A stretch of DNA of 64,000 nt, from the sequence record MH243438.1; one strand, given 5' to 3'. Shown one piece after another: positions 3,794 to 44,554 of the stretch. Under the pieces are notes generated by a model that was given only the letters and a program-made list of their open reading frames with translations, made no database searches and was not told the origin of the DNA. Source of the DNA: Escherichia phage vB_EcoM_NBG1. The number at the start of each line of letters is the position of its first letter. The first letter of the stretch is position 1. A program made the position numbers and the translations under genes.

Positions 3794-3817
3794 TCTTAAT
3801 TGATTAAATCTTATTTT

Positions 3818-3846
3818 GGGAGACTTCGGTCTCCCATTTTTGGTTT
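3818..3846 (+). terminator. Rho-independent terminator after gene 23
   Basis: Hairpin GGGAGAC-TTCG-GTCTCCC followed by a T-run. Confidence 0.8.
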
Positions 3847-4115
3847 TATTTCTGTGCAATTTCGATGTAAGTTTTCAAAATATTTTGCCAATTAGGCATA
3901 CCTTCTTGGACATATGCTGGAGAACCGTCTTTGTTTTTGAATGATGCAAGTTTATCAGTGGCCCAATAACCTTTAGCTCGAGCTTCAGAATCAACTTTCA
4001 TCCATACTTTGTTGAAGGCATTACCATTAACTTTTGCACCGTATTTTTCTACTAACTTAACTGCTTCAGCTTCCAGAACTTTTAAAGTATCTCGTAAGAA
4101 ACGTGCTTTAGTCAT
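3846..4115 (-). CDS. Hypothetical early protein in the slot occupied by segD in T4
   Basis: 89 aa ORF on - strand between genes 23 and 24, preceded by a T4-type early promoter at 4144-4176; no GIY-YIG or other motif recognised. Confidence 0.55.
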   Translation of the reverse strand: MTKARFLRDTLKVLEAEAVKLVEKYGAKVNGNAFNKVWMKVDSEARAKGYWATDKLASFKNKDGSPAYVQEGMPNWQNILKTYIEIAQK

Positions 4116-4143
4116 TTTGTTTACTCCTCTGTAGTTGATAAGT

Positions 4144-4176
4144 CTATAGTATCACATACCAAATACGTTGTAAACA
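4144..4176 (-). promoter_or_regulatory. T4-type early promoter
   Basis: On the - strand: GTTTAC -35, 17 nt spacer, extended -10 (tgtGATACTATAG); upstream of the 89 aa ORF. Confidence 0.6.
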
Positions 4177-4181
4177 ATCTT

Positions 4182-4189
4182 TATAAATA
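4182..4189 (+). promoter_or_regulatory. T4-type late promoter (TATAAATA) upstream of gene 24
   Basis: Exact TATAAATA 28 nt upstream of the gene 24 ATG. Confidence 0.7.
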
Positions 4190-4216
4190 ATCTATATCAC
4201 ATAAGGAAAAAATGCA

Positions 4217-5500
4217 ATGAGTAAAATCCAAAAATTATTGCGTGAATCTACAACGTCTACTAGCAACTCAATCGGTCGCCCAAATCTCGTTGCTTTGACT
4301 CGCGCTACGACTAAATTAATATATTCTGACATTGTAGCAACACAAAGAACTAATCAACCTGTTGCTGCTTTTTATGGTATCAAATATCTTAACCCAGACA
4401 ACGAATTAACATTTAAAACTGGTGCTACTTATGCAGGTGAAGCTGGATATGTAGACCGAGAAAAAATTACCGAACTCACAGAAGAATCAAAAGTCACATT
4501 AAATAAAGGCGATTTTTTCAAATATAATAATATCGTCTATAAAGTGTTAGAAGATACGCCATTTGCAGATATTCAAGAAAGTGATCTAGAATTAGCTCTT
4601 CAGATTGCAGTCGTTCATTTAAAGGTACGGTTATTTTCAGATGCAGCGGTAACAAGCAAATTTGAAAGCTCTGGTAGCGAAATTTCTGATGCAAGATTCC
4701 AGATTAATAAATGGCAAACTTCAGTCAAATCTCGTAAACTTAAAACCGGCCTCACGGTTGAATTAGCGCAAGATTTGGAAGCGAATGGATTTGATGCCCC
4801 TAACTTCTTAGAAGATTTGCTTGCTACTGAAATGGCTGATGAAATTAATAAAGATATTCTTCAGTCTTTAATTACTGTATCGAAACGTTATAAAGTTACT
4901 GGAATTACTGATACCGGATTTATTGACTTGAGCTATGCGTCTGCTCCAGAAGCAGGTCGTTCATTATACCGAATGGTATGCGAAATGGTTTCGCATATCC
5001 AAAAAGAGTCAACTTATACTGCAACGTTTTGCGTAGCCTCAGCTCGTGCAGCTGCTATTCTTGCTGCTTCTGGTTGGTTAAAACATAAGCCAGAAGATGA
5101 CAAGTATCTTTCACAAAATGCTTATGGATTCTTGGCAAATGGATTACCTCTTTACTGCGATACCAACAGTCCGTTAGATTATGTTATTGTGGGTGTTGTA
5201 GAAAATATCGGCGAAAAAGAAATTGTAGGGTCCATCTTTTATGCTCCATACACTGAAGGAGTAGATTTAGATGACCCGGAACATGTTGGTGCATTTAAAG
5301 TTGTAGTTGATCCAGAAAGCTTGCAACCGTCTATCGGATTATTGGTTAGATATGCTTTATCAGCAAATCCTTACACAGTAGCAAAAGACGAAAAAGAAGC
5401 GAGAGTAATTGATGGCGGGGACATGGATAAAATGGCAGGACGTTCAGACTTGTCTGTTTTACTCGGTGTTAAATTGCCTAAAATTATTATAGATGAATAA
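4217..5500 (+). CDS. 24: Capsid vertex protein gp24
   Basis: 427 aa, same length as T4 gp24; TATAAATA at 4182-4189 upstream. Confidence 0.95.
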   Translation: MSKIQKLLRESTTSTSNSIGRPNLVALTRATTKLIYSDIVATQRTNQPVAAFYGIKYLNPDNELTFKTGATYAGEAGYVDREKITELTEESKVTLNKGDFFKYNNIVYKVLEDTPFADIQESDLELALQIAVVHLKVRLFSDAAVTSKFESSGSEISDARFQINKWQTSVKSRKLKTGLTVELAQDLEANGFDAPNFLEDLLATEMADEINKDILQSLITVSKRYKVTGITDTGFIDLSYASAPEAGRSLYRMVCEMVSHIQKESTYTATFCVASARAAAILAASGWLKHKPEDDKYLSQNAYGFLANGLPLYCDTNSPLDYVIVGVVENIGEKEIVGSIFYAPYTEGVDLDDPEHVGAFKVVVDPESLQPSIGLLVRYALSANPYTVAKDEKEARVIDGGDMDKMAGRSDLSVLLGVKLPKIIIDE

Positions 5501-9023: not shown

Positions 9024-9051
9024 TAACTATATTTATTACATGGAAAAGAGT

Positions 9052-9783
9052 ATGTATCACTTTGTTTATGAGACCGTAAATTTAATCAATGGTAAAAAGT
9101 ACATTGGCAAACATTCTACAGAAAATTTAAATGATTCGTATCTAGGGTCAGGTGTTGCCTTAAATCGCGCTATCAAAAAATACGGAGAAGAATCATTTAA
9201 ACGTTCAATAATTAAACAATTTGAAACTTCCGCTGAAGCTTTAGAATACGAAGCTCAGTTAGTAACAGAGGATTTGGTCAAATCTAACGAGTATTATAAT
9301 ATGCGCCAAGGCGGTGAAGGTGGAAGGTATAAGTACACCGAAGCTGATAAGACTAAAATGTCTAATAGTGCTAAAGAACGAATAAAGAGGCTTGGTCATA
9401 ATCTTTTAGGAAAACACAGATCGGAAGAAACAAAAAGAAAACTATCTGAAACAAATAAACGTCGATACTCTGAAGACCCAACATGCCACGGGCGGTATGG
9501 TACAGGAAAGCCAAAGATTGATAAAATTAAAGGTCCTAAAAATCCTACAACTCTAAATAAAATTTGTGTTAACAACGGTAAAGAAAACAGATTTATATCA
9601 GCTGAGGACCCGATGCCTGAAGGATTTGTAAAAGGAATGGTCCAACTTAATAGAAAATCTAGAAAGGGCTGTGAAGTAAAACCTACGACCACCGGCAGAA
9701 TATGGGTAAATAACGGGGCTATAAATAAATTAGTAAATCCGTTATCCATCCCAGATGGATATGTTAAAGGCCGTTTAAGGTAA
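9052..9783 (+). CDS. segE: GIY-YIG homing endonuclease, SegE-like
   Basis: N-terminal MYHFVYETVNLINGKKYIGKH is a GIY-YIG motif; located between inh and uvsW as segE is in T4. Start set at ATG 9052 (purine-rich SD); the ORF is open from 9001, alternative ATG at 9040. Confidence 0.85.
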   Translation: MYHFVYETVNLINGKKYIGKHSTENLNDSYLGSGVALNRAIKKYGEESFKRSIIKQFETSAEALEYEAQLVTEDLVKSNEYYNMRQGGEGGRYKYTEADKTKMSNSAKERIKRLGHNLLGKHRSEETKRKLSETNKRRYSEDPTCHGRYGTGKPKIDKIKGPKNPTTLNKICVNNGKENRFISAEDPMPEGFVKGMVQLNRKSRKGCEVKPTTTGRIWVNNGAINKLVNPLSIPDGYVKGRLR

Positions 9784-9788
9784 TTATT

Positions 9789-11303
9789 ATGACAGATATT
9801 AAAGTACATTTTCATGATTTTAGCCATGTAAGAATTGAATGCGACGAAAGCGTGTTCTATGAATTACGCGACTTTTTTAGCTTTGAAGCCGATGGGTACA
9901 AATTCAACCCGCGTTACAAATATGGGAACTGGGATGGTAGAATTAGACTTTTAGATTACAACCGTTTGTTACCATATGGACTTGTAGGACAAATAAAAAA
10001 GTTCTGTAGCAATATGAGTTATTCTGTATGGATTGACCCTAAAATCTTTGAGACCGAAGACCTTACCAGGGAAGATTTTGACGCATGGCTTTCTAAACAA
10101 GAAATTTATTCAGGCAACGCCAAAATCGAACCACATTGGTATCAAAAAGATGCAGTATATGAAGGACTAGTTAATCGTCGTCGAATTTTAAACCTTCCGA
10201 CATCAGCAGGTAAATCACTAATCCAAGCACTTTTAGCTCGGTATTATCTAGAGAACTATGAAGGTAAAATTCTCATTATCGTCCCTACAACAGCATTGAC
10301 AACCCAGATGGCTAATGATTTTGTTGATTATCGCTTGTTTAGTCATTCGATGATTAAGAAAATTGGCGGTGGTGCTGATAAAGCAGACAAATCTAAAAAC
10401 GACGCTCCAATTATTGTTGGCACATGGCAAACGGTAGTTAAGCAGCCTAAAGAATGGTTCTCTCAGTTCGGTATGATGATGAACGATGAATGCCACTTAG
10501 CAACAGGCAAAAGTATTTCTTCAATCATCGCAGGATTAAATAATTGTATGTTTAAATTCGGTTTATCTGGCTCATTAAGAGACGGAAAGGCCAATGTAAT
10601 GCAGTACGTAGGTATGTTCGGCGAAATCTTCCGTCCTGTTAGCACGTCTAAATTAATGGAAGATGGACAGGTAACTGAGCTTAAGATTAATAGTATTTTC
10701 CTTCGTTATCCAGACGAATTCGCCACCAAATTAAAAGGTAAAACATACCAAGAAGAAGTTAAAATTATTACCGGACTAAAACGACGTACAAAGTGGATTG
10801 CTCAACTTTCAGTCAAATTGGCTAAGAAAGACGAGAACGCCTTTGTAATGTTTAAACACGTTACACACGGTAAAGAAATATTTGAAGCTATTAAAGAGCT
10901 TGGATACGAAAAAGTTTATTACGTATCAGGCGAAGTTGATACTGAAACACGTAACGCGCTTAAAGTCATGGCAGAAAATGGTAAAGGCATTATTATTGTC
11001 GCATCATATGGAGTATTCTCTACCGGTATTTCAGTCAAGAATCTTCATCATGTTATTTTTGCCCATGGTGTTAAATCAAAAATTATCGTACTTCAAACAG
11101 TAGGTCGTGTGCTTCGTAAGCATGGTTCTAAAGCTGTTGCTACAGTTTGGGATCTCATCGATGACGCAGGTGTAAAACCTAAATCATTAAATACTAAAAA
11201 GAAGTATACTCATCTTAATTACTTGTTAAAACACGGTATTGATCGTATCCAACGTTACGCTGATGAGAAATTTAACTATGTAATGAAAACAATTAATTTA
11301 TAA
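9789..11303 (+). CDS. uvsW: UvsW RNA-DNA and DNA-DNA helicase
   Basis: 504 aa; MTDIKVHFHDFSHVRIECDE... and SF2 helicase motifs (LPTSAGKS Walker A, DECH box) match remembered T4 UvsW. Confidence 0.95.
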   Translation: MTDIKVHFHDFSHVRIECDESVFYELRDFFSFEADGYKFNPRYKYGNWDGRIRLLDYNRLLPYGLVGQIKKFCSNMSYSVWIDPKIFETEDLTREDFDAWLSKQEIYSGNAKIEPHWYQKDAVYEGLVNRRRILNLPTSAGKSLIQALLARYYLENYEGKILIIVPTTALTTQMANDFVDYRLFSHSMIKKIGGGADKADKSKNDAPIIVGTWQTVVKQPKEWFSQFGMMMNDECHLATGKSISSIIAGLNNCMFKFGLSGSLRDGKANVMQYVGMFGEIFRPVSTSKLMEDGQVTELKINSIFLRYPDEFATKLKGKTYQEEVKIITGLKRRTKWIAQLSVKLAKKDENAFVMFKHVTHGKEIFEAIKELGYEKVYYVSGEVDTETRNALKVMAENGKGIIIVASYGVFSTGISVKNLHHVIFAHGVKSKIIVLQTVGRVLRKHGSKAVATVWDLIDDAGVKPKSLNTKKKYTHLNYLLKHGIDRIQRYADEKFNYVMKTINL

Positions 11304-11328: not shown

Positions 11329-11559
11329 ATGGTACTTGAATTTAAACAATTTTTATACGAAGCATCTATTGACGAATTCATGGGTAAAATTGCTAGTTGT
11401 CATACCCTAGAAGGGCTTGAAGAATTGGAAGCTTATTATAAGAAACGTATAAAAGAAACGGAATTAAAAGATACAGATGATATTTCTGTCAGGGATGCCT
11501 TAGCAGGTAAGCGTGCCGAACTTGAAGGCGATGATGAGGATGTGGAAGAAGACTTCTAA
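11329..11559 (+). CDS. uvsW.1: UvsW.1 small acidic protein
   Basis: 76 aa ORF 25 nt downstream of uvsW in another frame; same size as T4 UvsW.1. Confidence 0.8.
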   Translation: MVLEFKQFLYEASIDEFMGKIASCHTLEGLEELEAYYKKRIKETELKDTDDISVRDALAGKRAELEGDDEDVEEDF

Positions 11560-26044: not shown

Positions 26045-26077
26045 CATTATACTCTAATCCGTCCTTGGATGTAAACT
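26045..26077 (-). promoter_or_regulatory. T4-type early promoter
   Basis: GTTTAC -35 with GAGTATAATG -10 on the - strand. Confidence 0.55.
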
Positions 26078-26690
26078 ACTTAATGAAATTAATTTCTACC
26101 GGATGAACAACAGGTTGAGCAGTGATATATTGAGTAATTGCTTTCATGACTAGAGCTTCAGAACCAGGATTTTTCTCAACGAATTCACGTGCTTGGTTAT
26201 GAGCTTCAAGTTCACTTAGTAAACCACTTCGTTGACATCCACGGTCTTGAGTACCCTGTTCAGATAAAAAGGCGACGATGTATTTTTCATCGTCATACGG
26301 TTTAGACGGTTGAGCAAATGTTCCTTTACTTCCAAAAGGAGAGTTATGACGCCACATCACGCCGTGAGGAGTTTCAACCTTCGTGTATTCATGCGGTCCA
26401 TTTTTCTTAGTTTCTTTCCATGGAACTTCATGGACCTTAGGGTTAGGACATTCAATAAAATGCTCATCTAAATCGGTCGAGAATATTAAAGTAAAACAAT
26501 TACTGAATTTACCAACACCTGCCTGATAAATTTTACCTTCAGAAGTTCTAATTTCACAAACTGAGCCAGCATCAGTAACTTCTAAAACTTCAAAAGGCTC
26601 GATAAGGTCATATGAGAACATGTTTTTAAGGCGTGGAGTAATATCCCCATTTTTAAAATTCATTTTATAAAAAGTATTAACTTTAAACAT
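26076..26690 (-). CDS. Hypothetical protein
   Basis: 204 aa ORF, no recognised motif; shares short GSVCEI motif with the next ORF. Confidence 0.55.
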   Translation of the reverse strand: MFKVNTFYKMNFKNGDITPRLKNMFSYDLIEPFEVLEVTDAGSVCEIRTSEGKIYQAGVGKFSNCFTLIFSTDLDEHFIECPNPKVHEVPWKETKKNGPHEYTKVETPHGVMWRHNSPFGSKGTFAQPSKPYDDEKYIVAFLSEQGTQDRGCQRSGLLSELEAHNQAREFVEKNPGSEALVMKAITQYITAQPVVHPVEINFIK

Positions 26691-27845: not shown

Positions 27846-28008
27846 TATAAATTCTCTTTAAATGAAAATGCAGGACTTATTGACATTGCCTGCGCAAGCC
27901 CTCAACGGGAACATAGGTTTTGGATATTTAACGACAGGATAACCATAAACCCGTCATCATACCTACCATGACTTACACAGCTAACCTTTTGCTGACGCAT
28001 GATAGCAA

Positions 28009-28257
28009 TTATTTCAAAGTAATAACAAAATGACGAACTGCTTTGCGTGCTGCAGAAGCCAGAGGCTTAGCATATTTCAATTCATCTTTAGCTTCCAGTT
28101 CAGAAGCCAGAGTAGCCTGAGCAGGATTCAGGTGTTTGAAATAACGCAGGATTTCCAGTGCTTCGGCTTCAACATCAATTGACGCACCGTAGTTTTCGTG
28201 ACCGTTATTCCATGCGTTGCGTTGCAGTTCAAGAGCGTGTTGTAATTGTTTAATCAT
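28009..28257 (-). CDS. rIII: Lysis inhibition accessory protein rIII
   Basis: 82 aa; MIKQLQHALELQRNAWNNGHENYGASIDVEAEALEILRYF... matches remembered T4 rIII. Confidence 0.9.
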   Translation of the reverse strand: MIKQLQHALELQRNAWNNGHENYGASIDVEAEALEILRYFKHLNPAQATLASELEAKDELKYAKPLASAARKAVRHFVITLK

Positions 28258-29080: not shown

Positions 29081-29651
29081 AAAAGTTTCGAATTTGTTCC
29101 CAATTCAGAGAACGAAGATTATTACGAGAGTACTGAATTACTTCAATACCAGCTTGTTTAAGAATGTCTGCCCAATTTTCAGGAGATCTGTCATATAATT
29201 CCGCGTATACAACCTTTTTAATACCTGACTGCGTAATAGCTTTAGTGCAATCAGGACACGGAGAAAGCGTAGTATATAACGTAGCACCTTCAATAGAATT
29301 ACCTTTACGAGCTGCAAACAAAATTGCATTCAGTTCCGCATGGATTTCGTTATTGGCAGACCAGGCACTATGAGCGGCCCGATGTTCTTTAGCCAAAACA
29401 AAATTATCTGCCCGTCCAAATGCTGTAGTGCCTTCTTTATGTCCAGCAATGATGACCGGTCTTGGATTATTCTTCAACCAGCCATTTTCGGATGCATGTT
29501 CGCAACAGTTAACACCACCTGAAGGAGAGCCATTATAACCTGTAGAAATAATGCGTCCATCTTTTTCAATGACGGCACCAACTTTCCATGAACAACATTT
29601 TGATTCTTGAGAAATCAGATATGCAATCTGAAGGTATGTGCTAGCTTTCAT
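29070..29651 (-). CDS. cd: dCMP deaminase
   Basis: 193 aa; zinc motifs HAELNA and SPCPDC; matches remembered T4 Cd in length and sequence. Confidence 0.95.
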   Translation of the reverse strand: MKASTYLQIAYLISQESKCCSWKVGAVIEKDGRIISTGYNGSPSGGVNCCEHASENGWLKNNPRPVIIAGHKEGTTAFGRADNFVLAKEHRAAHSAWSANNEIHAELNAILFAARKGNSIEGATLYTTLSPCPDCTKAITQSGIKKVVYAELYDRSPENWADILKQAGIEVIQYSRNNLRSLNWEQIRNFCGE

Positions 29652-30643
29652 TATTGAACCTTATTAATATAAGTTAACAGCTCTTTAGTTTGTTCCCAAC
29701 TGATGCACGCATCGGTAACGGAAACGCCATAGGACATATTATCAGAAATTTTTTGATTTCCTTCATGTAGGAACGATTCTATCATAATTCCTTTGACCAA
29801 ATCATTAGCTGCTAAATTTTTACCAATACCAATTTGATTGCTATAATGCCCATCAGCGTTTGCATGGCTACAGTCAACCATTACATAATGATTCAGACCT
29901 ACTGCCCTTGCTTTGTTAGAAGCTTCTTGAATATCAGAAGAATGATAGTTCGGGCCGTTGGTCCCGCCACGCAATACGATATGCGTATTCTGATTACCTT
30001 CAGCTTCAACAATGCCTACAGTACCATCGACGTCCATACCCATATACCGATGAGGCCAGGCGGCACTATACATCGCGTCTGTAGCTACTTTAATAGAACC
30101 ATTGGTTGCGTTCTTGAAGCCTACGCACATCGGTAGACCTGAAGCAATTTCACGATGTGTCTGACTTTCAGTCGTACGGGCGCCAATAGCAACCCATGAG
30201 AAAATACCAGAAAGATACTTAATCGTGAACGGGTCTAATACTTCAGTTGCTAATGGAAGTCCCATACGTAGAAGTTTACGACACAATGTTCGTGCAACTA
30301 TAAGACCGTGGTTCATATCAAAACTTCCGTCAAGATATGGATCATTTACAAGACCTTTCCAACCTACGGTAGTTCGAGGCTTTTCAAAATAAACGCGCAT
30401 CACTAACAGAACATTAGGAAGACGAGTTTGAAGTTCAGCCAAACGTTTGCCGTATTCAACAGCAGCAATAGGGTCATGAATTGAACAAGGACCTACAACA
30501 ATAAGTTTGCGTGGGTCTTCACCGTTCATAATCGAATTAACTTGTTCGCGATGAGAAGCCACTTGTGATGCGTAAGCTTCCGACAAAGGAATAATCTCAG
30601 CCAGTTCTTTTGGAGAAATAAGTTTTCTGATGACAGGTAACAT
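29651..30643 (-). CDS. 3-deoxy-D-arabino-heptulosonate-7-phosphate (DAHP) synthase, class I (AroG/F/H-like)
   Basis: 330 aa; VGPCSIHD, VYFEKPRTTVGWKGL, AIGARTTESQTHRE, DCSHAN and SVTDACI line up with catalytic and metal-binding motifs of E. coli AroG/AroH as remembered; stop overlaps cd start. Confidence 0.85.
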   Translation of the reverse strand: MLPVIRKLISPKELAEIIPLSEAYASQVASHREQVNSIMNGEDPRKLIVVGPCSIHDPIAAVEYGKRLAELQTRLPNVLLVMRVYFEKPRTTVGWKGLVNDPYLDGSFDMNHGLIVARTLCRKLLRMGLPLATEVLDPFTIKYLSGIFSWVAIGARTTESQTHREIASGLPMCVGFKNATNGSIKVATDAMYSAAWPHRYMGMDVDGTVGIVEAEGNQNTHIVLRGGTNGPNYHSSDIQEASNKARAVGLNHYVMVDCSHANADGHYSNQIGIGKNLAANDLVKGIMIESFLHEGNQKISDNMSYGVSVTDACISWEQTKELLTYINKVQ

Positions 30644-31740: not shown

Positions 31741-32826
<1,086 letters not shown>

Positions 32827-32827
<1 letters not shown>

Positions 32828-33126
32828 TATTTTATTCCTAAGAAAATTTCAAGAATACGAATGTTATGCTCGCGCCGGTCTTTATTAATTTCAGCAACGT
32901 TTTTATTAATTGACTTACTTCTAACGTTTGAAGAAATAAATTTAATCATATGACTTTTGAGTTGTTGCAAATCCATTCCTTTTTCTTTAGCAGCTTTACG
33001 AAGAGCTTTACCTGCTTCATCTAGGGCCTTTGCTGCATCTTTGTCATAATTGTCAAGTGACATTCCACGGCAGATATCAATATACTCATCAGACCGTTTG
33101 ATGTAATTCTCTAGTAATGTTTTCAT
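32827..33126 (-). CDS. Hypothetical protein
   Basis: 99 aa; early promoter at 33154-33185. Confidence 0.5.
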
Positions 33127-35741: not shown

Positions 35742-35775
35742 AAATTGTACCACAATCCTTGTGGTATGTAAACTA
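35742..35775 (-). promoter_or_regulatory. T4-type early promoter upstream of rnlA
   Basis: GTTTAC -35 on the - strand; -10 less canonical. Confidence 0.45.
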
Positions 35776-36183
35776 CTTTTTCTTATGTTGGATATTCCAA
35801 GGCGGGTTGAACTTTTTGATAAAAAGTGGTTCTTCAAGGTCCATTGTTGCGATGGTCATTGAACCAAGTTCGTTGGTGACTGAAAGGTCAAAACATTGGC
35901 GGGCCCAGAATTCAACCTTTTTACCTTGCATTAAGGCATCCAAAATCATAAGTGATTTTCTTGAATCTGAAGTCTGGTCTTTTCGATTTATGGCTGTTCG
36001 ATAATAGTTAATGCGTTTCTTTAAATTCTTGGTTTTACCAATATACACAAGTTCGTCATCTATAGCAATAGCATATATGACATTTTTCTTATTAGGGACA
36101 TCAACTGTTTTAATTGTTGCATCTTCTAATAGCTCCAATTCTGTATATTTAATAAAGGAATATTCGGCGGCGATATCTTTCAT
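35773..36183 (-). CDS. denA: Endonuclease II
   Basis: 136 aa; VIYAIAIDDELVYIGKTKNLKKRINYYRTAINRKD (GIY-YIG-like) and C-terminus FNPPWNIQHKKK match remembered T4 DenA. Confidence 0.95.
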   Translation of the reverse strand: MKDIAAEYSFIKYTELELLEDATIKTVDVPNKKNVIYAIAIDDELVYIGKTKNLKKRINYYRTAINRKDQTSDSRKSLMILDALMQGKKVEFWARQCFDLSVTNELGSMTIATMDLEEPLFIKKFNPPWNIQHKKK

Positions 36184-36209
36184 AATAAAGTGGGACCGAA
36201 GTCCCGTCC

Positions 36210-37388
36210 TTAGAAATATTTTTTGTATGAATTGATTACATTTTGGTCTACATCATTATCAATTTGTGCGACAAGATAAGAACTGATTTCAACTTCTTGT
36301 GGGGCTGCTTGAACCAAATCAGAGTTCAAATACTCACGAATCCATGGAATAGGATGACGAGTTGATACGTCTTTAAGAGGACATGGCAGACCACAACTAC
36401 GCATACGAGACACGGTAAGATAATCCACAAATTCACTTAGGATTTTAACATTTAGACCTGGAAGAGCACCATCTTTAAACAAGTGTTCAGCCCATTCTTT
36501 TTCTTGAGCGTTAACTTCCATGAAAATATCAACTGCTTCTTGTTCACACTCTTGAGCAATTTTGACCCATTCATCACCGTCTTCGCCATCTTGTAAAGCA
36601 TGAATAATATATTGAGTGCCCTTGAGGTGGAGCTGTTCATCACGAGCAATGAACTTCATAATCTTGGCATTACCTTCCATGATTTCCATATTCTTGTGGA
36701 AGTTAAAGGTGCATGCGAAAGATACATAAAAACGAATAGCTTCTAAGGCATTAATAACGTGCAAACAGAGGTAAAGAGATTTCATTAGCTCACGCTTCCA
36801 ATATGTCTCATGCTCAATAGCATCTTCAATAACGTCTTCGTCTGCATTAATTTCTTTTTGGTATTCGATATCAGCTTTAGCGTTTTCCCAATAACGAGTT
36901 TTAATCAGAACATCATCATAATAACGTCCAATGGATTCAGCACGTTTCATAATAGCTTCATCTAATACAATCTCATCAAACACCTTCGATGGATCTGTAT
37001 AAAGATTTCGCATAATATGAGTATATGAACGAGAGTGAATAGTTTCACTGAAAGTCCATGTAGCAACCCATGTATCTAATGAAGGGTCTGAAAGCAATGA
37101 CATAAGTACCGCAGATGGTGCTCTACCTTGGATAGAATCTAATAATGATTGATACTTAAGGTTGTTGGTAAAGATGTCCTGTTGGAACTGTGGAAGCTTA
37201 TTAAACTGGGCCGAATCCAACATCAAGTTTACTTCCTCGGGACGCCAAAAGAACGAGAGCTGCTTTTCGATAAGCTCTTCAAAAACTTTATGACGCTGAA
37301 TATCATACCGTGCGAGGCCAAGACCAGAACCAAAGAACATCGGTTCATTCAAAACATCGACTTGTTGTGTGTTAAAAACTGTACTCAT
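36210..37388 (-). CDS. nrdB: Ribonucleotide reductase small subunit, uninterrupted
   Basis: 392 aa from ATG 37388 (the track ORF starts at a GTG at 37400); MSTVFNTQQVDVLNEPMFFGSGLGLARYDIQRHKVFEEL... matches remembered T4 NrdB; no intron. Confidence 0.95.
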   Translation of the reverse strand: MSTVFNTQQVDVLNEPMFFGSGLGLARYDIQRHKVFEELIEKQLSFFWRPEEVNLMLDSAQFNKLPQFQQDIFTNNLKYQSLLDSIQGRAPSAVLMSLLSDPSLDTWVATWTFSETIHSRSYTHIMRNLYTDPSKVFDEIVLDEAIMKRAESIGRYYDDVLIKTRYWENAKADIEYQKEINADEDVIEDAIEHETYWKRELMKSLYLCLHVINALEAIRFYVSFACTFNFHKNMEIMEGNAKIMKFIARDEQLHLKGTQYIIHALQDGEDGDEWVKIAQECEQEAVDIFMEVNAQEKEWAEHLFKDGALPGLNVKILSEFVDYLTVSRMRSCGLPCPLKDVSTRHPIPWIREYLNSDLVQAAPQEVEISSYLVAQIDNDVDQNVINSYKKYF

Positions 37389-37442
37389 TATATTTCTCAC
37401 TTAGTTATTAACTCATCCATGAGTAAATTATAATAAAAAGTC

Positions 37443-39698
37443 TTAAAGCTTACAAGCAGAACAATCTTCTGCTTTAGGTGTTTCTAATTCATAGTCGTCT
37501 GTACCAGACCCATCACGAGTGTTATGATAGTAGAGGTTTTTTCCGCCAAAGTACCAGAAGTAAAGCAGATCATCAAGCATCACTGACATTGGCACTTTAC
37601 CTTTCTCAAATACTGCAGGGTCATAGTAAGTATTGGCAGAAGCAGATTGGCACACCCATTTCAACATGATAGCAACTTGGGTCAAATAAGGTTTATTACC
37701 TTTCTTAGCAAGTTTCCACGCATAGTCGTAAAGACTCATGTTATGTTCGATATTAGGAACAACCTGTCGGAAGTTGCCTTCTTTAGATTCTTTAATACTT
37801 ACTGGACCGCGCGGAGGCTCAATCCCGTTTGTAGAGTTCGATACTTGACTGCTTGACTCACAAGGCATGAGTGCAGACAACGTTGAGTTACGAATTCCAT
37901 GTTCTTTGAGTTCAGCTCGAAGTTCTTCCCAGTCACAGACGTAGTTCGGGGCTGCGATTTGGTCAATCTTTTTATTGTACCAGTCGATAGGTAATTCGCC
38001 TCTAGACCATTTAGTGTCTGAATAATACTCACAAGGTCCTTTTTCTTTGGCGAGTTTGATTGAAGCTTTGATAAGGCCATATTGCAATCTCTCAAACAAT
38101 TCATGAGTCAAATCGTTAGCGTCTTCATATGAAGCAAAGTTAGAAGCTAACCATGCAGCATAGTTCGTAACACCAACACCAAGATTACGACGCTTTTTAG
38201 CTTTTAAAGCTTCTGGGACCGGATAATCCTGATAGTCTAACAGGTTATCAAGTGCACGTACTTGTACTTCAGCAAGTTCATTAATTTTATCTTGGTCTTG
38301 CCAATCAAATTTATCTAATACAAAAGCAGATAATGTGCATAAACCAATTTCAGCATCAGGACCGTTCACATCATTAGTTGGAATAGCTATTTCACAACAT
38401 AAGTTACTCTGACGAATTGGAGCTTTTTCACGAATAAATGGAGTGTAGTTATTCGTGTTATCAACAAACTGTGGATAAATTCGAGCAGTGCCAGAACGTT
38501 CAGTCATGAACAATTCAAAGAGTTCTAGTGCTTTGATTCTTTTCTTTCTGATTGTTGGGTCTTTTTCAGCTTTCTCATAAAGCTCACGGAATTTATCTTG
38601 ATCTTCAAAGAACGAGTAATACAGTTCGCCTGACATTTCGTGAGGGCTAAATAAAGTAATATAATCATTTTTACCAAGGCGTTCCATCATAAGGTCATTA
38701 ATCTGAATTCCGTAGTCCATATGTCGAATACGGTTTTCATCCACGCCTTTGTTATTTTTCAGAACTAATAGGTTCTCTACTTCTAAGTGCCACATCGGAT
38801 AATACGCTGTAGCAGCACCACCACGAATACCACCTTGAGAACAAGATTTTACTGCAGTTTGGAAATGTTTCCAGAATGGAATAACGCCCGTATGTCGAAC
38901 TTCACCCATACCGATCTTAGAACCTTCTGCACGAAGCATACCAACGTTGATACCAATACCAGCTCGTTTAGAAATATATTCAATAATTGATGCTGAAGTT
39001 TTGTTAATAGATTTTAACGAATCACCGGCTTCAATAACTACACAACTAGAGAACTGGCGAGTTGGAGTACGAGCACCTGCCATAATTGGAGTAGGCAATG
39101 AAACTTGATGAGTAGAAACGGCATCGTAAAAACGAATAATATGTTTCAAACGGTCATGAGTTTCGTCTTGGTGTAAGGCCATGCCAATAGCCATGATAGC
39201 AAACTGTGGAGTTTCATAAATCTTCCCAGTTGTTTTATCTTTAACTAGATATTTTTCTTTAAGCTGCATAGCACCAGCATAAGTCAGGTCAAAGTCTCGT
39301 TCATGTTTAATCTGTGAATCGAGATAAATGATTTCTTCTGCTGAATATTGAGACAACAGCTCAGGGTCATATTTGCCTTCATTAACACAGTAAGAAATAT
39401 GGTCGATAAAAGCAGGCGGTTCAAACTGCCCATATACATCTTTACGAAGTGCAAACATTAGCCCTTTGGCGGCGACATATTGATAATCAGGTTCTTCGAC
39501 AGAAATCGAGTTAGCTGCAACTTTAATACAAATCTTCTGGATATCTTTGGTGCTCATCCCGTCGACAAGATGGGTCTTAATTTCTTCGTACAATTCATAT
39601 GGGTCAATTTGTGTTCCTTCACATTGCCAAGTTAAGACTTGAATAATTTTCTGTGCATCAAAATTTTGGGATACACCACTGCTCTTAGTTACTTGCAT
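37443..39698 (-). CDS. nrdA: Ribonucleotide reductase large subunit
   Basis: 751 aa; class Ia RNR alpha features (ATP-cone N-terminus, active-site Cys region NLCCEI, C-terminal CSACKL). Confidence 0.96.
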   Translation of the reverse strand: MQVTKSSGVSQNFDAQKIIQVLTWQCEGTQIDPYELYEEIKTHLVDGMSTKDIQKICIKVAANSISVEEPDYQYVAAKGLMFALRKDVYGQFEPPAFIDHISYCVNEGKYDPELLSQYSAEEIIYLDSQIKHERDFDLTYAGAMQLKEKYLVKDKTTGKIYETPQFAIMAIGMALHQDETHDRLKHIIRFYDAVSTHQVSLPTPIMAGARTPTRQFSSCVVIEAGDSLKSINKTSASIIEYISKRAGIGINVGMLRAEGSKIGMGEVRHTGVIPFWKHFQTAVKSCSQGGIRGGAATAYYPMWHLEVENLLVLKNNKGVDENRIRHMDYGIQINDLMMERLGKNDYITLFSPHEMSGELYYSFFEDQDKFRELYEKAEKDPTIRKKRIKALELFELFMTERSGTARIYPQFVDNTNNYTPFIREKAPIRQSNLCCEIAIPTNDVNGPDAEIGLCTLSAFVLDKFDWQDQDKINELAEVQVRALDNLLDYQDYPVPEALKAKKRRNLGVGVTNYAAWLASNFASYEDANDLTHELFERLQYGLIKASIKLAKEKGPCEYYSDTKWSRGELPIDWYNKKIDQIAAPNYVCDWEELRAELKEHGIRNSTLSALMPCESSSQVSNSTNGIEPPRGPVSIKESKEGNFRQVVPNIEHNMSLYDYAWKLAKKGNKPYLTQVAIMLKWVCQSASANTYYDPAVFEKGKVPMSVMLDDLLYFWYFGGKNLYYHNTRDGSGTDDYELETPKAEDCSACKL

Positions 39699-39785
39699 AT
39701 ATTCCTCAGTATAGGTTGATAGACATTACTCCAAACGGGATAGTATTTATCCCGTTAATTTATTATACACTTTTAAACTGAAGCG

Positions 39786-40040
39786 TTAATTATCCTCAGC
39801 AATAATTTCTTCATATTCTTTAGGTGTCAAGACTGTGATATTGAAATAAACCAACGGTTCTTTTTCTATACCGAATCCACCACAGAATTCACGATATTCA
39901 TAAATTCGTTCGTGTGAATAGCAAATGAATCGTTCACCTTTAACTGTGATTTCACTATTCGGTGAAGGGATATCCAGTTCGGTAGGATTTTTCATTTCAA
40001 AAATTGTGGTGCCATATGAATTAATAAAACGTAAAATCAT
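39786..40040 (-). CDS. Hypothetical protein
   Basis: 84 aa ORF between td and nrdA. Confidence 0.5.
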   Translation of the reverse strand: MILRFINSYGTTIFEMKNPTELDIPSPNSEITVKGERFICYSHERIYEYREFCGGFGIEKEPLVYFNITVLTPKEYEEIIAEDN

Positions 40041-40041
40041 T

Positions 40042-40902
40042 TTATACCGCCATTTTAGCTTTGATAGCTGGATGTGATTCGTAATTTTTAAGAACGAAAT
40101 CAGAATGTGTCATTGTTCCAGTAACCCAGTCCATTTGGATTTTTGTAGGCCAATTCTCAAAATTACTAGGCCAATTAATTTCAAGAGAACATAACTCTTT
40201 AGGTTCACGTCGAAGAACTTCTTTGCATTGTTCTACATGATTGCTGTAGATATGCGTATTGCCGCCTGAGAACACTAAATCACCTGGGATAAGGTTACAC
40301 ATCTTAGCCACAATATATGTCAAGGCAGCGTACGAGGCAATGTTGAACGGCAGGCCCAAGAAAACATCTACACTGCGTTGATACCATTGTAAATCAAGAT
40401 GACCATTACGCACATTGAACTGATAGAACATATGACAAGGAGGAAGAGCCATTTGGTCAATTTCAGCTGGATTCCAGGCAGAAACAATTTGACGACGATC
40501 GGTTGGTATTTTTTTAATACGGTCGATTGTTTCAACTAATTGGTCTACACCACCAAAATCACGCCATTGCTTACCATAAATAGGACCAAGTTCACCACTA
40601 TGATATCCAAGGTCTTTTGCCTGATTTTCATAGTTGTCGTCCCAAATAGTTTTACCTTGAATAAGACTACCATGAGTACGAATACGCAAATCATTAACAT
40701 TGGTAGAACCAGACATGAACCACAGTAGTTCGGCAATACAAGCTTTCCATGCTAATTTCTTAGTTGTTACTGCAGGGAATCCTTTAGACAGATCCCAACG
40801 TAATTTAGTTCCGAACACGGCAATTGTTCCTGTGCCTGTACGGTCGTCTGTTTCATAACCATTTTCTAGGATATCATTAATCAGGTATTGGTATTGTTTC
40901 AT
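40042..40902 (-). CDS. td: Thymidylate synthase, uninterrupted
   Basis: 286 aa continuous ORF; active-site region ALPPCHMFYQFNV; same length as spliced T4 Td; no intron. Confidence 0.97.
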   Translation of the reverse strand: MKQYQYLINDILENGYETDDRTGTGTIAVFGTKLRWDLSKGFPAVTTKKLAWKACIAELLWFMSGSTNVNDLRIRTHGSLIQGKTIWDDNYENQAKDLGYHSGELGPIYGKQWRDFGGVDQLVETIDRIKKIPTDRRQIVSAWNPAEIDQMALPPCHMFYQFNVRNGHLDLQWYQRSVDVFLGLPFNIASYAALTYIVAKMCNLIPGDLVFSGGNTHIYSNHVEQCKEVLRREPKELCSLEINWPSNFENWPTKIQMDWVTGTMTHSDFVLKNYESHPAIKAKMAV

Positions 40903-41486
40903 TTATATACGCTCTCAGTAATTTCGGTGAGTTCATCGATTCTGTAGTAATGAGATTCTACCATAGAACGTTGAAGCATAATATCCTGGACGAAATCTTT
41001 ATCAAGTTGAACATCTGAATTAACACGACATTTCTTAATGATTTTAGTCATCACGATTTCATCGGCATAAGGCAGTGCTTGTTTTAATAAAGCGGGGCCA
41101 CCAATAACAGATACATCAACATGTTCAGTAGAAAGTTTAAACGGTACATCAGTTGCAGGGCTAAACAGGTTAATTTCACCGCCCATTAGCAAGGTAATAA
41201 ATTCAGATTGGGTGATATAGAACCGTGCAAGTTCATCAGTTTTAGTCCTAGGCAGTTTTCTGGCCATATCAGTGACAACCACATGAGTACGATCTGGGAG
41301 TAGACGAGGTAATGATGCAAAAGTCTTAGCACCCATAACCATTACAGTGTTTTTAGTGCGAGCAACAAAGTTACTCATATCTTGTTTGATATGCTTCCAT
41401 GGAAGTCCATCACCTAATCCAAAAGCATATTCCAGTTTATCATCAACTGTTTTAGACGGTGCGCATGCGAATACTAATTTAAGCAT
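40899..41486 (-). CDS. frd: Dihydrofolate reductase
   Basis: 195 aa from ATG 41486; MLKLVFACAPSKTVDD...AFGLGDGLPW matches remembered T4 Frd; the track ORF is extended upstream. Confidence 0.92.
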   Translation of the reverse strand: MLKLVFACAPSKTVDDKLEYAFGLGDGLPWKHIKQDMSNFVARTKNTVMVMGAKTFASLPRLLPDRTHVVVTDMARKLPRTKTDELARFYITQSEFITLLMGGEINLFSPATDVPFKLSTEHVDVSVIGGPALLKQALPYADEIVMTKIIKKCRVNSDVQLDKDFVQDIMLQRSMVESHYYRIDELTEITESVYK

Positions 41487-41727
41487 TTTTAAGTCCTTTA
41501 ATAACTTTTTGGATTTGTGATTTAGAAGAAACCAAATCAGTCTGGATTTGACAACCATCGGTAGAGTCAAATACTATAACACAAACGCGAGGTTTTGTTG
41601 TGTATCGCCCAGACAAATCAAATGCGTCACCAATGAATTCGGCCAAATCCGGATGGTCTAAATTAACTGAAGTATAAACTTCATATCCGACATCAGCGCC
41701 TTGAGAGTATTCAACAACAACATTCAT
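41479..41727 (-). CDS. Hypothetical protein (frd.1 position)
   Basis: 82 aa ORF coupled to frd. Confidence 0.5.
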   Translation of the reverse strand: MNVVVEYSQGADVGYEVYTSVNLDHPDLAEFIGDAFDLSGRYTTKPRVCVIVFDSTDGCQIQTDLVSSKSQIQKVIKGLKNA

Positions 41728-41729
41728 AA

Positions 41730-41978
41730 TTATTTCCTCAGATTTTTCTTAACAACTTTCCAATCGGCTTTGAACGATTCAACATCAGAGTGGTGAATCC
41801 AGAATCCTGCACTTTCACCATCTTCGTAGAGTGGACATCCATCACATTCTTCGTTCCAACCCATTTCACGTAAAGCTTCTTCAGCTTGTTCAAGGAGTTC
41901 AGCGTCTTTACCAACGATGTTGAAGTACCATTTACCTCTAACTTCAGAATCTTTGATGCTCTGGCGTTGTAATCTCAT
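41730..41978 (-). CDS. Hypothetical protein
   Basis: 82 aa ORF. Confidence 0.5.
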   Translation of the reverse strand: MRLQRQSIKDSEVRGKWYFNIVGKDAELLEQAEEALREMGWNEECDGCPLYEDGESAGFWIHHSDVESFKADWKVVKKNLRK

Positions 41979-42042
41979 TTTATTCTCCGCTTCACCTTTA
42001 ATTTGATAGGGCTACTATAACATAACCCTATCTGATTGTACA

Positions 42043-42435
42043 CTACTTTTTAAAAGTGTTTTGCAAAAGTTTGATGATTTCGTCGACGTTGGTTTCATCT
42101 ACGATACAATGGATTTTTGTTACACCTAAAGTTACACCTTCGTTAGTAGGTTGAGGCTTTACTAAATCTACCTCGGTAAAGTATTTGAACTCGTCAGGAT
42201 AAATCTCAAAATAAGTTTCAATTTCACCACCGGCAGAACATACAGTACCATCTTCCATAGTTACACTTACTACGTTTGACATATCGCTATCATAATCAGG
42301 TTCCATTCCGTTTACAACAAAACTAGGCCCGTGGAGTTCAATCAATTTTAACATCTTAGCGTTATTGTGTGGTGCTTCTTGAACAAAGTCATCTTTAAAT
42401 AAAGGGTTAATGATATAAGATTTTCCGATTTCCAT
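42043..42435 (-). CDS. Hypothetical protein
   Basis: 130 aa; early promoter cassette at 42461-42494. Confidence 0.55.
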   Translation of the reverse strand: MEIGKSYIINPLFKDDFVQEAPHNNAKMLKLIELHGPSFVVNGMEPDYDSDMSNVVSVTMEDGTVCSAGGEIETYFEIYPDEFKYFTEVDLVKPQPTNEGVTLGVTKIHCIVDETNVDEIIKLLQNTFKK

Positions 42436-42460
42436 TTTGATTTCCTCATGTTGTTGATAG

Positions 42461-42494
42461 GTCTATACTAACACATCCAGGGAAGAAGTAAACA
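42461..42494 (-). promoter_or_regulatory. T4-type early promoter
   Basis: GTTTAC -35, GTTAGTATAGAC -10, conserved caacaacATGAGGAAA leader; upstream of the 130 aa ORF. Confidence 0.6.
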
Positions 42495-42518
42495 ACTTTT
42501 TCGGCAATTTACAGATAC

Positions 42519-42543
42519 TCAAAAGGGAGACCGAAGTCTCCCA
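42519..42543 (-). terminator. Terminator after gene 32
   Basis: - strand GGGAGAC-TTCG-GTCTCCC plus T-run, 6 nt after the gp32 stop. Confidence 0.75.
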
Positions 42544-42548
42544 ATTTA

Positions 42549-43448
42549 TTATAGACCAGCTAACAGGTCATCGAGGTCGCTATCGTCAGAAGACGAGGAA
42601 CTCATGAAGTCATCTTCAGTTTTTGCAGAACTAAAGGCTTCCATGTCTTTATCAAAATCGTCAAGGTCAGAAGCAACTTTATCTGCAACAGAAGCTGCGG
42701 CAGCTGCTGCACCACCAAGAGCGGCAGTACCAAGAACTTGATTAAATTTAGTATTCAATTCTTCAAACGATTTGAACTTATCTTTAGAAGTCATTTCAGA
42801 AAGGTCAACCATTTGTTCGAACAATTCTTTCTGGAAAGATTCATCATCAATGTTTGGAATCGCAGATTGATTCAGGAATTTAGATTCGTCGTAGTTACTG
42901 AAACCAGAAACCTGTTTAACTTTCAGCACAAAGTTAGCACCTTCCCACGGGCAAGTTACATCAACCGGAGTTTCACCCATTTCGGTATCAACTGCAATCA
43001 TTGCATTGATTTTGTCCCAAATCTTTTTACCAAAACGGTATTTGAATACTTTACCTTCATTATCTGGAGCTTGTGGGTCTTTAACAACCAGGATATTAGC
43101 CCAATAAGAAGTTTTACGTTTCAGTTGAGAATATTCTGTTTTGTTTGTATTGTACAGGTCATTTTTACTAATGTACTGGCATACCGGACAAGAGTCATAA
43201 TCGCCGTGTGTAGATGAACAGGTTTCAATATACCATTTGCCATTTTTCTTGAAACCGTGGTTAACAAGAATTGTAAACGGAAGTGCGTCATCTGTTTTTG
43301 CCGGCAGGAAACGAATTACCGCTTGACCATTACCGGATGCATCGAGTTTCAGCTTCCATTCACCTTTATCTTCTGAAGAGAAACCTTTGTTACCATTCAG
43401 TTTAGCCATCTGAGCTGCGAGGTCTGCGGTACTTTTACGTTTAAACAT
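42549..43448 (-). CDS. 32: Single-stranded DNA-binding protein gp32
   Basis: 299 aa; [36 protein letters not shown]... and acidic C-terminal tail match T4 gp32; terminator hairpin downstream. Confidence 0.97.
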
Positions 43449-43565
43449 TTTATTTGCCTTTATTTAGATTATTAATTAAATTTTACAGTTGGTTGCTACG
43501 ACACTTATACCTCGTAGCTGGTATGATTTATTTATAAAGTAATTTTAACACACAAGAAATAAAGC

Positions 43566-44219
43566 TTAATACTTACATGATTTGATTGTTTCTATGAACA
43601 ATTTCTTAGCAGCATTTCCATCGATTTGAAGTATTTTTCGATATGCCTTTAATTTGGTAGAATAATTTTGCCAGACTAAGTTATCGGTGAGTTCGTCGTG
43701 CTTATCTATAATATTCAAAAATGAGTCCAACAATAAGAAAGTCTCAAATGAAATTATATTGCTTTGTAGCAATTTGAATATGTAGCTCGACTGAACGTTG
43801 TTATTATAATCAAATATCTCTTGAAGCGCACTAACTTCAACTTTCTTACTGAAATAGTAGATGTTACGTACGTCTTCAGCAAACGTCTCCTTGGCTTGTT
43901 TGAGACGTCCAATATATTCCCTATAGAAAACTAATGCATCAGCGTCTGATATCTCACCAATCCATGCGTCTTGGTTAGCAACTAAGTTGCTTATGAATAT
44001 CAAGGTGAGTTCCTTCAATTTATATTTCTCTGCTAGTTTTTCAAAGAAATATTTATCTCGGCGTTTTTGATACGCATTATCCGAAACACGCATGCACCAG
44101 TTATATTTGATTACGTCATACCGACCATTAAAATGTTGTTTGCACATCAAGTATAGTTTGTATACCGATTTTCCGTTAATATAACGTTCTCCATCAGGAG
44201 GCATGCGTATTTTAATCAT
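43566..44219 (-). CDS. 59: Helicase loader gp59
   Basis: 217 aa, same length and position as T4 gp59. Confidence 0.9.
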   Translation of the reverse strand: MIKIRMPPDGERYINGKSVYKLYLMCKQHFNGRYDVIKYNWCMRVSDNAYQKRRDKYFFEKLAEKYKLKELTLIFISNLVANQDAWIGEISDADALVFYREYIGRLKQAKETFAEDVRNIYYFSKKVEVSALQEIFDYNNNVQSSYIFKLLQSNIISFETFLLLDSFLNIIDKHDELTDNLVWQNYSTKLKAYRKILQIDGNAAKKLFIETIKSCKY

Positions 44220-44554
44220 AATAAGAAATCTAGCGTATTAGTTTTTTCACCACGAGCAACTGATGGGCGAAGCATGTTTTCGTCAATTGCTTCGCTTGTA
44301 ATTTTTTCAACAATTCCTGTAGGAATAAATTTAGCAAATTGTGTTTCTGGAATAGAATTTTCTTCCAAGAAAGCAGTTGTTGCTTCTAAATAAGACATAC
44401 CAAATTGTTCAACCATGGATTCGATAATGAATCCGTTTTCTTGTCGGTCAAGCAATTTAGCGATATCATCTTTATCGTGTTTTACTGCTAATTCTTGTTC
44501 AGATAAACCGGCCTCATCAACCGGTTTAATATCACTTAGTGAAAACTGTGTCAT
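44216..44554 (-). CDS. 33: Late promoter transcription accessory protein gp33
   Basis: 112 aa; MTQFSLSDIKPVDEAGLSEQELAVKHDKDDIAKLLDRQENGFIIESMVEQFGMSYLEATTAFLEENSIPE matches T4 gp33. Confidence 0.95.
   Translation of the reverse strand: MTQFSLSDIKPVDEAGLSEQELAVKHDKDDIAKLLDRQENGFIIESMVEQFGMSYLEATTAFLEENSIPETQFAKFIPTGIVEKITSEAIDENMLRPSVARGEKTNTLDFLL

Follow-up and report, generated by a model that had tools for sequence, protein, structure and literature searches.

Does a T4-type phage whose td and nrdB genes are uninterrupted, and which carries a single homing endonuclease gene where T4 carries several, have an unusual mobile-element load? Escherichia phage vB_EcoM_NBG1 (MH243438.1) raises this question, and we analysed a stretch of 64,000 nucleotides of its genome (hereafter the window). 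A preliminary description based on the letters alone had presented this DNA as that of a T4 relative with a different mobile-element load. The data support this claim: in the matching region T4 carries six homing endonuclease genes (segD, segE, I-TevIII, mobE, I-TevI and segG) and the window one. Very probably, the source of the window is an RB69-like coliphage with ordinary intron-minus td and nrdB genes, without segD, mobE or segG, and with one segE-type cassette that was acquired by homing together with foreign uvsW sequence. The finding is correct but already known, and nothing about it is new in kind. Coordinates of the features discussed are collected in Table 1.

Table 1. Positions in the 64,000-nucleotide window of the genes, intervals and insertion sites considered here. 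ORF, open reading frame; aa, amino acids; DAHP synthase, phospho-2-dehydro-3-deoxyheptonate aldolase.
Feature	Position	Strand	Description and evidence
Interval between genes 23 and 24	3794-4216		423 bp, no segD; T4 106561-107275 without counterpart (blastn)
89-aa ORF, conserved, function unknown	3846-4115	-	Antisense to genes 23 and 24; phrog_6003, E = 2e-45
Insertion cassette (ribosome-binding site and segE ORF)	9044-9779	+	736 bp; clean insertion between inh and uvsW; APCEc01 has 9 bp
segE-like free-standing GIY-YIG homing endonuclease gene	9052-9783	+	243 aa; Pfam; phrog_314 homing endonuclease, E = 6e-43; tblastn
Diverged 5' tract of uvsW linked to cassette	9789-9945	+	About 157 nt; candidate co-conversion or self-immunity footprint
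204-aa ORF, function unknown	26076-26690	-	phrog_17531; at T4 30.6 position; size of an endonuclease gene
DAHP synthase gene	29651-30643	-	330 aa; between cd and cd.2; in APCEc01, not in T4
denA (endonuclease II)	35773-36183	-	79% identity to T4 DenA; Pfam GIY-YIG 28.1 bits; adjoins nrdB
nrdB (ribonucleotide reductase small subunit)	36210-37388	-	392 aa from ATG at 37388; Pfam Ribonuc_red_sm; uninterrupted
nrdA-nrdB intergenic gap	37389-37442	-	54 bp (T4 703 bp); without mobE and nrdB.1
nrdA	37443-39698	-	751 aa; 87% aa identity to T4 NrdA over full length; Pfam ATP-cone, Ribonuc_red_lgN, Ribonuc_red_lgC
td (thymidylate synthase)	40042-40902	-	Single 286-aa ORF; Pfam Thymidylat_synt, E = 2.8e-97, residues 2-286
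Empty td intron insertion site	40342-40380	-	In I-TevI-type homing-site sequence; insertion point between 40354 and 40353
Interval between genes 59 and 32	43449-43565	-	117 bp, no segG; holds gene 32 leader (blastn against T4)

Uninterrupted td and nrdB and the vacant sites of T4 elements

Both td and nrdB had been described as continuous and free of introns, and for each gene the ORF, the Pfam match (full length in the case of td) and an exon-to-exon alignment with T4 confirmed this. The td gene of the window is 74.6% identical in nucleotide sequence to spliced T4 td, and in the blastn alignment window positions 40353/40355 join T4 positions 143546/144565, leaving out the 1017-bp T4 intron. 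The junction at 40354/40353 reads TTGGGC/CTGCCG. Around this point the window has CAACGCAGTGTAGATGTTTTCTTGGGC/CTGCCGTTCAAC where the T4 exons have CAACGCTCAGTAGATGTTTTCTTGGGT/CTACCGTTTAAT; the T4 I-TevI homing site is conserved at 32 of 39 positions, with the CAACG motif equally far from the insertion point in both. The same insertion-site sequence is found in APCEc01, an intron-free relative. I-TevI tolerates many substitutions in its target, and the empty td site may still be cleavable by this enzyme.

For nrdB, the program that listed ORFs had reported a frame of 396 amino acids at 36210-37400 (-), with a GTG start four codons upstream of the ATG. Window positions 36710/36703 join T4 138455/139041 (blastn), and an intron of approximately 598 bp is missing. 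The empty insertion site, between 36713 and 36712, reads TTCGCAT/GCACC and is also the same as in APCEc01. Upstream of nrdB lies an absence that the preliminary description missed: T4 139720-140423, comprising nrdB.1 and mobE, has no counterpart in the window, where a tblastn search with MobE returned only chance matches (E > 2).

The 117-bp distance between gp32 (42549-43448) and gp59 (43566-44219), and the lack of segG that had been read from it, both held up. The T4 segG segment (147926-148544, 619 bp) is replaced by 39 bp in the window according to blastn. A segG remnant in this interval was considered and rejected, as the sequence can instead be aligned to the gene 32 leader of T4; one stem differs on both sides (GCTACGA/TCGTAGC versus GCTATGA/TCATAGC in T4). 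We take the aligned part of the T4 leader to be the autoregulatory pseudoknot region. A late-promoter-like motif, TATAAATA, is also present, and the control elements of gene 32 fully occupy the 117 bp. In T4, the gene 32 promoters lie within segG (PMC2988022).

Gene 23 extends to 3793, and gene 24 begins at 4217. The T4 segment 106561-107275 has no counterpart between them, SegD used as a tblastn query against the window matched the segE locus only, and segD is absent, as had been claimed. The interval is not empty, though, and holds an 89-amino acid antisense ORF with the position and orientation that segD has in T4. Its predicted product had no significant Pfam match and no similarity to any T4 protein, and members of its family are present in 187 phage records, always annotated as hypothetical. 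We rejected this ORF as a segD remnant given that it shares neither protein nor DNA similarity with segD and belongs to a conserved family of its own. Relatives in VR7/JS98-type phages have 33-38% identity to it.

To look for remnants of introns and endonucleases, as the preliminary description had proposed, we searched at the protein, DNA and RNA levels and found none. When all 15 T4 homing endonucleases were compared with the window by tblastn, significant matches fell only at 9052-9783 (SegE, 2e-67; SegA, SegB, SegC and SegD, 1e-22 to 1e-27; SegF, 1e-3), and every match elsewhere in the window had E > 0.1. The best tblastn matches of I-TevI, I-TevII and I-TevIII in the window (E 0.12-2.8) lay in unrelated places. 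Sensitive blastn searches with T4 intron and endonuclease DNA yielded no match at the corresponding loci, and the intron DNA matched only at chance level. Rfam at its gathering threshold retrieved nothing from the window but also nothing from the T4 td and nrdB introns, and we discarded this result as uninformative. In E-value mode the T4 positive controls were recovered (td intron, 40.3 bits, E = 9e-8; nrdB intron, 35.7 bits, E = 2e-6), and RF00028 (Intron_gpI) had no match at E <= 1, whether in 36000-44300 or across the 64 kb. Relative to T4, each absence is a precise deletion, independent of the others, at a site known for mobile elements, and chance does not account for them. Nothing in the analysis contradicts the gene structures or the absences described above.

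The statement that the gene at 9052-9783 is the only mobile endonuclease gene in the 64 kb was borne out by tblastn and Pfam; a second GIY-YIG gene, denA, is present but is not mobile. All ORFs of at least 45 amino acids were compared with T4, and those without a T4 counterpart were searched against Pfam and the full T4 genome, ten of them also against PHROGs. By Pfam, none of the 15 window ORFs without a detected T4 counterpart contains an endonuclease domain. One of the 15 matched a Pfam family, DAHP synthase; the others belong to phage families of unknown function or were unmatched. The 204-amino acid ORF had no Pfam match, no T4 homologue and no nuclease signal. Endonucleases hidden in the insertions relative to T4 at 26076-26690, 29651-30643 and 32636-33126 were not supported; these hold the DAHP synthase gene and members of PHROGs of unknown function without a nuclease signal. 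No homing endonuclease is annotated in the matching region of APCEc01 in RefSeq.

Relation to Mosigvirus and distribution of the introns

The window is collinear with T4 (NC_000866) positions 102,723-168,488, from gene 67 to rIIB, with a nucleotide identity of 67-94% per block and mostly 70-85% (blastn). The best matches in the phage collection were members of Mosigvirus, the RB69-like phages, namely APCEc01, JK36, MM02 and G2469 (97-98% over 5-25 kb; G2469, 97.6% across 25 kb). APCEc01 and G2469 are both classified as Mosigvirus mar005p1. Across the 64 kb the window is collinear with APCEc01 except for three indels, and its identity to this phage varies by block from 94% to 98%, Mosigvirus genomes being mosaic. 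Both the level of identity and the gene order are shared with recognised members of the genus. On these grounds we place the source phage among the RB69-like coliphages, in the genus Mosigvirus and close to species mar005p1, and do not regard it as a close relative of T4.

In gene order, in td and nrdB genes without introns, in the lack of segD, segG and mobE, in the 89-amino acid ORF between genes 23 and 24 and in the DAHP synthase gene, the window resembles RB69 and the Mosigvirus phages APCEc01, MM02 and JK36. It differs in that it has the segE-like cassette of 736 bp and the tract of uvsW linked to it, neither of which is found in APCEc01 and most such Mosigvirus genomes. To determine how common uninterrupted genes are, we compared short queries spanning the td and nrdB junctions with the phage collection, where a split gene is expected to give two separate matches. 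The td junction was continuous in 799 records and gave two separate matches in about 193; for nrdB the corresponding counts were 1285 and about 103. RB69 has a continuous td. It has been listed with no homing endonuclease genes, compared with 15 in T4 (PMC2993671 Table 5), and a study of five T4-like genomes, RB69 among them, found no group I introns (PMC1524935). According to another paper, 'T4 remains the outlier' (PMC2988022). An intron-free, endonuclease-poor state is the norm for Mosigvirus and for T4 relatives generally, and because the comparison had been made with T4, an ordinary genome looked unusual.

Introns do occur in the same species. At exactly the points that are empty in the window, G2469 has a td intron of 1016 bp with an intact I-TevI-like ORF of 245 amino acids and an nrdB intron of 1078 bp with an ORF of 269 amino acids, where the I-TevIII of T4 is a relic of 97 amino acids. 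Its td intron shares 90% and its nrdB intron 98-99% identity with the T4 introns, while its td exons are only about 75% identical to those of T4, which fits a horizontal spread of introns into Mosigvirus. In the exon sequence flanking its td intron, G2469 departs from the window at three positions (-4, -1 and +3), at the last two of which it has the T4 bases; away from the insertion sites, the exon sequences are the same in both phages.

A comparable case is T2, which at nrdB and gene 32 lacks the intron, segG and mobE, as the window does, and whose empty alleles receive the T4 elements in mixed infection (PMC2790892, PMC2988022). Divergence from T4 is far greater in the window than in T2. Because of this divergence (70-85% nucleotide identity), homology-dependent homing from T4 itself may be inefficient, and the realistic intron donors are congeneric phages such as G2469.

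We propose that these patterns reflect selfish elements that spread by homing during co-infection, with the endonuclease cutting an allele that lacks the element and repair of the cut allele copying the element plus some flanking DNA. Because such elements spread in this way, their presence is patchy even among close relatives. A genome without them has either not been invaded or recombined back to the empty allele. In the window, the td and nrdB insertion sites are empty and intact, and the 736-bp cassette would have entered the inh/uvsW junction with approximately 150 nt of foreign uvsW sequence.

Might the lineage once have had introns in td and nrdB, perhaps also segD, segG or mobE, and then have lost them precisely by recombination with an intron-free relative or a spliced copy? 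The same-species phages G2469, JK45, F27, AV110 and JM10 have an intron in td, in nrdB or in both, and the mosaicism noted above makes recombination with empty alleles plausible. However, the exon sequence at both insertion sites is that of intron-free APCEc01, and in td the window has C at -1 and G at +3, versus T and A in intron-bearing G2469, with no trace of an earlier intron-linked conversion. We consider such a loss quite improbable, while recognising that sequence alone cannot separate a lineage that was never invaded from one in which an empty allele replaced an occupied one. That the missing introns and endonuclease genes are an artefact of assembly or sequencing, through collapsed or skipped insertions, has next to no likelihood, since the reading frames are clean across every junction and the same intron-free junctions are found in the independent genomes APCEc01, MM02, JK36 and RB69.

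The result places the phage in the RB69-like group and matters little beyond correct annotation. It shows td, nrdB, gene 32 and the junction of genes 23 and 24 to be vacant target sites of an ordinary type. The window adds another record of intron and homing endonuclease content that varies among near-identical T4-type phages.

The segE-like cassette and its linked uvsW tract

The GIY-YIG gene of the window had been called segE, and it is indeed a real gene of SegE type; its product is divergent, however, with 48% amino acid identity to T4 SegE. The protein scored above the Pfam cut-offs for both PF19835 SegE_GIY-YIG (28.7 bits, cut-off 25) and PF01541 GIY-YIG (25.8 bits, cut-off 22.6). In an alignment with SegA, SegB, SegD, SegE and I-TevI, residues Y6, Y17 and N83 are invariant. 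It has the N-terminal GIY-YIG catalytic domain of Seg-type endonucleases. The gene resembles that of T4 in its position between inh (hoc.1) and uvsW and in its orientation, and the proteins share the GIY-YIG N-terminus and a C-terminal portion of approximately 80 amino acids that aligns closely. T4 SegE has 205 amino acids and the window protein is 38 longer, with an extra central segment of about 55 amino acids (roughly residues 93-150). This segment contains a NUMOD3-like motif, GKHRSEETKRKLS, that T4 SegE lacks and that is common to SegA and SegD; the NUMOD3 match of the window protein was below the Pfam cut-off (17.3 versus 20.4 bits).

The cassette was found in 10 phage records, and many Mosigvirus records match its flanks without it. 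As is characteristic of Seg-type elements, it lies between conserved genes and is present in some close relatives and absent from others. The SegE-like proteins encoded by these 10 copies share at least 99% identity and form a tight cluster of their own. Among the matches listed, the next relative is from Serratia phage WSPA (53%), and one record beyond those listed falls in the 60-80% band. The cassette is already present in GenBank genomes, where the gene is annotated as a homing endonuclease.

Immediately downstream, the first approximately 157 nt of uvsW are 80.6% identical to the segE-less APCEc01, whereas the next 200 nt are 99% identical. We compared the first 160 nt among ten genomes. 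The window differs at 31-32 of these positions from the segE-less APCEc01, JK45 and mar009P5, at 17 from the segE-less AV109 and Mizar, all within nt 1-82, and at 0-3 from four other segE-bearing genomes. Past nt 160, identity among all ten is about 99%. The tract accompanies the cassette in 5/5 genomes with segE and is present in 0/5 without it, and in nt 1-82 every segE-less genome examined differs from the window. AV109 and Mizar, which differ only in nt 1-82, are recombinant haplotypes. Of the variant positions, roughly half agree with T4 and the others with neither T4 nor the segE-less sequence, so that the donor of the tract was a third lineage.

T4 SegE has been proven active: site-specific double-strand cleavage of the allele without the endonuclease and biased inheritance in crosses have been demonstrated for this enzyme alone, and its homing into RB30 is nearly 100% efficient and co-converts the flanks (PMC2330249). 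Its cleavage site was reported in the hoc.1-uvsW region (PMC2330249) and is listed as uvsW (PMC2988022 Table 1). We infer that the SegE-like protein of the window is active and cuts near the inh/uvsW junction. Together, the cassette and the uvsW tract form the footprint expected of homing with co-conversion, a mark of Seg-type elements for which the basis here is a correlation in ten genomes and not an observed conversion event.

A different view is that the gene is a decaying, inactive relic, like I-TevIII and mobA of T4, that is kept by linkage. It is rare, being found in only 10 records, and defunct endonuclease genes can persist, as they do in T4 (PMC2790892). Against this, the ORF is full length with its GIY-YIG domain above the Pfam cut-offs and the three catalytic-domain residues invariant, the protein has a NUMOD3-like linker that even active T4 SegE lacks, and the near-identity of the 10 copies in otherwise mosaic genomes suggests recent spread. 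We think a relic rather unlikely. Several observations nevertheless weigh against acquisition of a single functional element by homing. T4 itself carries defunct endonucleases (I-TevIII and mobA), and an intact ORF is consequently no proof of function. The uvsW tract may be an older polymorphism that hitch-hikes with the cassette and not a direct product of co-conversion, and the segE-less AV109 and Mizar already hold its right-hand half. Regarding the number of elements, searches based on T4 queries and Pfam would miss a wholly undescribed endonuclease family, for which the 204-amino acid ORF is an example of a candidate.

A more specific proposal can be made, to which we would give even chances. 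The SegE-like protein may represent a distinct Seg sub-lineage that is currently spreading in Mosigvirus and has kept the NUMOD3 linker that T4 SegE lost, and the uvsW tract of approximately 150 nt, which has sharp limits, may mark, chiefly in nt 1-82, its recognition or cleavage site together with self-protecting changes. If this is true, the locus would provide a new site-specific GIY-YIG enzyme with a natural target defined by its sequence. A modest by-product of the analysis is a clean natural homing footprint, the segE cassette plus the uvsW tract, that could guide target-site mapping of an uncharacterised SegE variant.

In the window, uvsW is read as two ORFs, 9789-11303 (504 amino acids) and 11329-11559 (76 amino acids), both on the (+) strand; the T4 RefSeq record has one gene of 587 amino acids. 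APCEc01 uvsW is also annotated as two ORFs, and the T4 record flags sequence discrepancies in that section.

Neighbouring genes and a further indel

The nrd region is a known hotspot of endonuclease insertion (PMC2790892). In the window nrdA is uninterrupted, with no intein and no splitting endonuclease gene. An inserted homing endonuclease gene splits nrdA into two ORFs in the Mosigvirus relative AV111, an arrangement that the window does not have. On the other side of nrdB, denA occupies the same place as in T4 and APCEc01; it is the second gene of the window with a GIY-YIG domain, is conserved, and is neither mobile nor a homing endonuclease gene.

Relative to APCEc01, and leaving aside the variable region of gene 37, the window has a single further indel of appreciable size. 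It lies just upstream of rIII, where approximately 135 bp of APCEc01 are missing at window positions 28005-28009.

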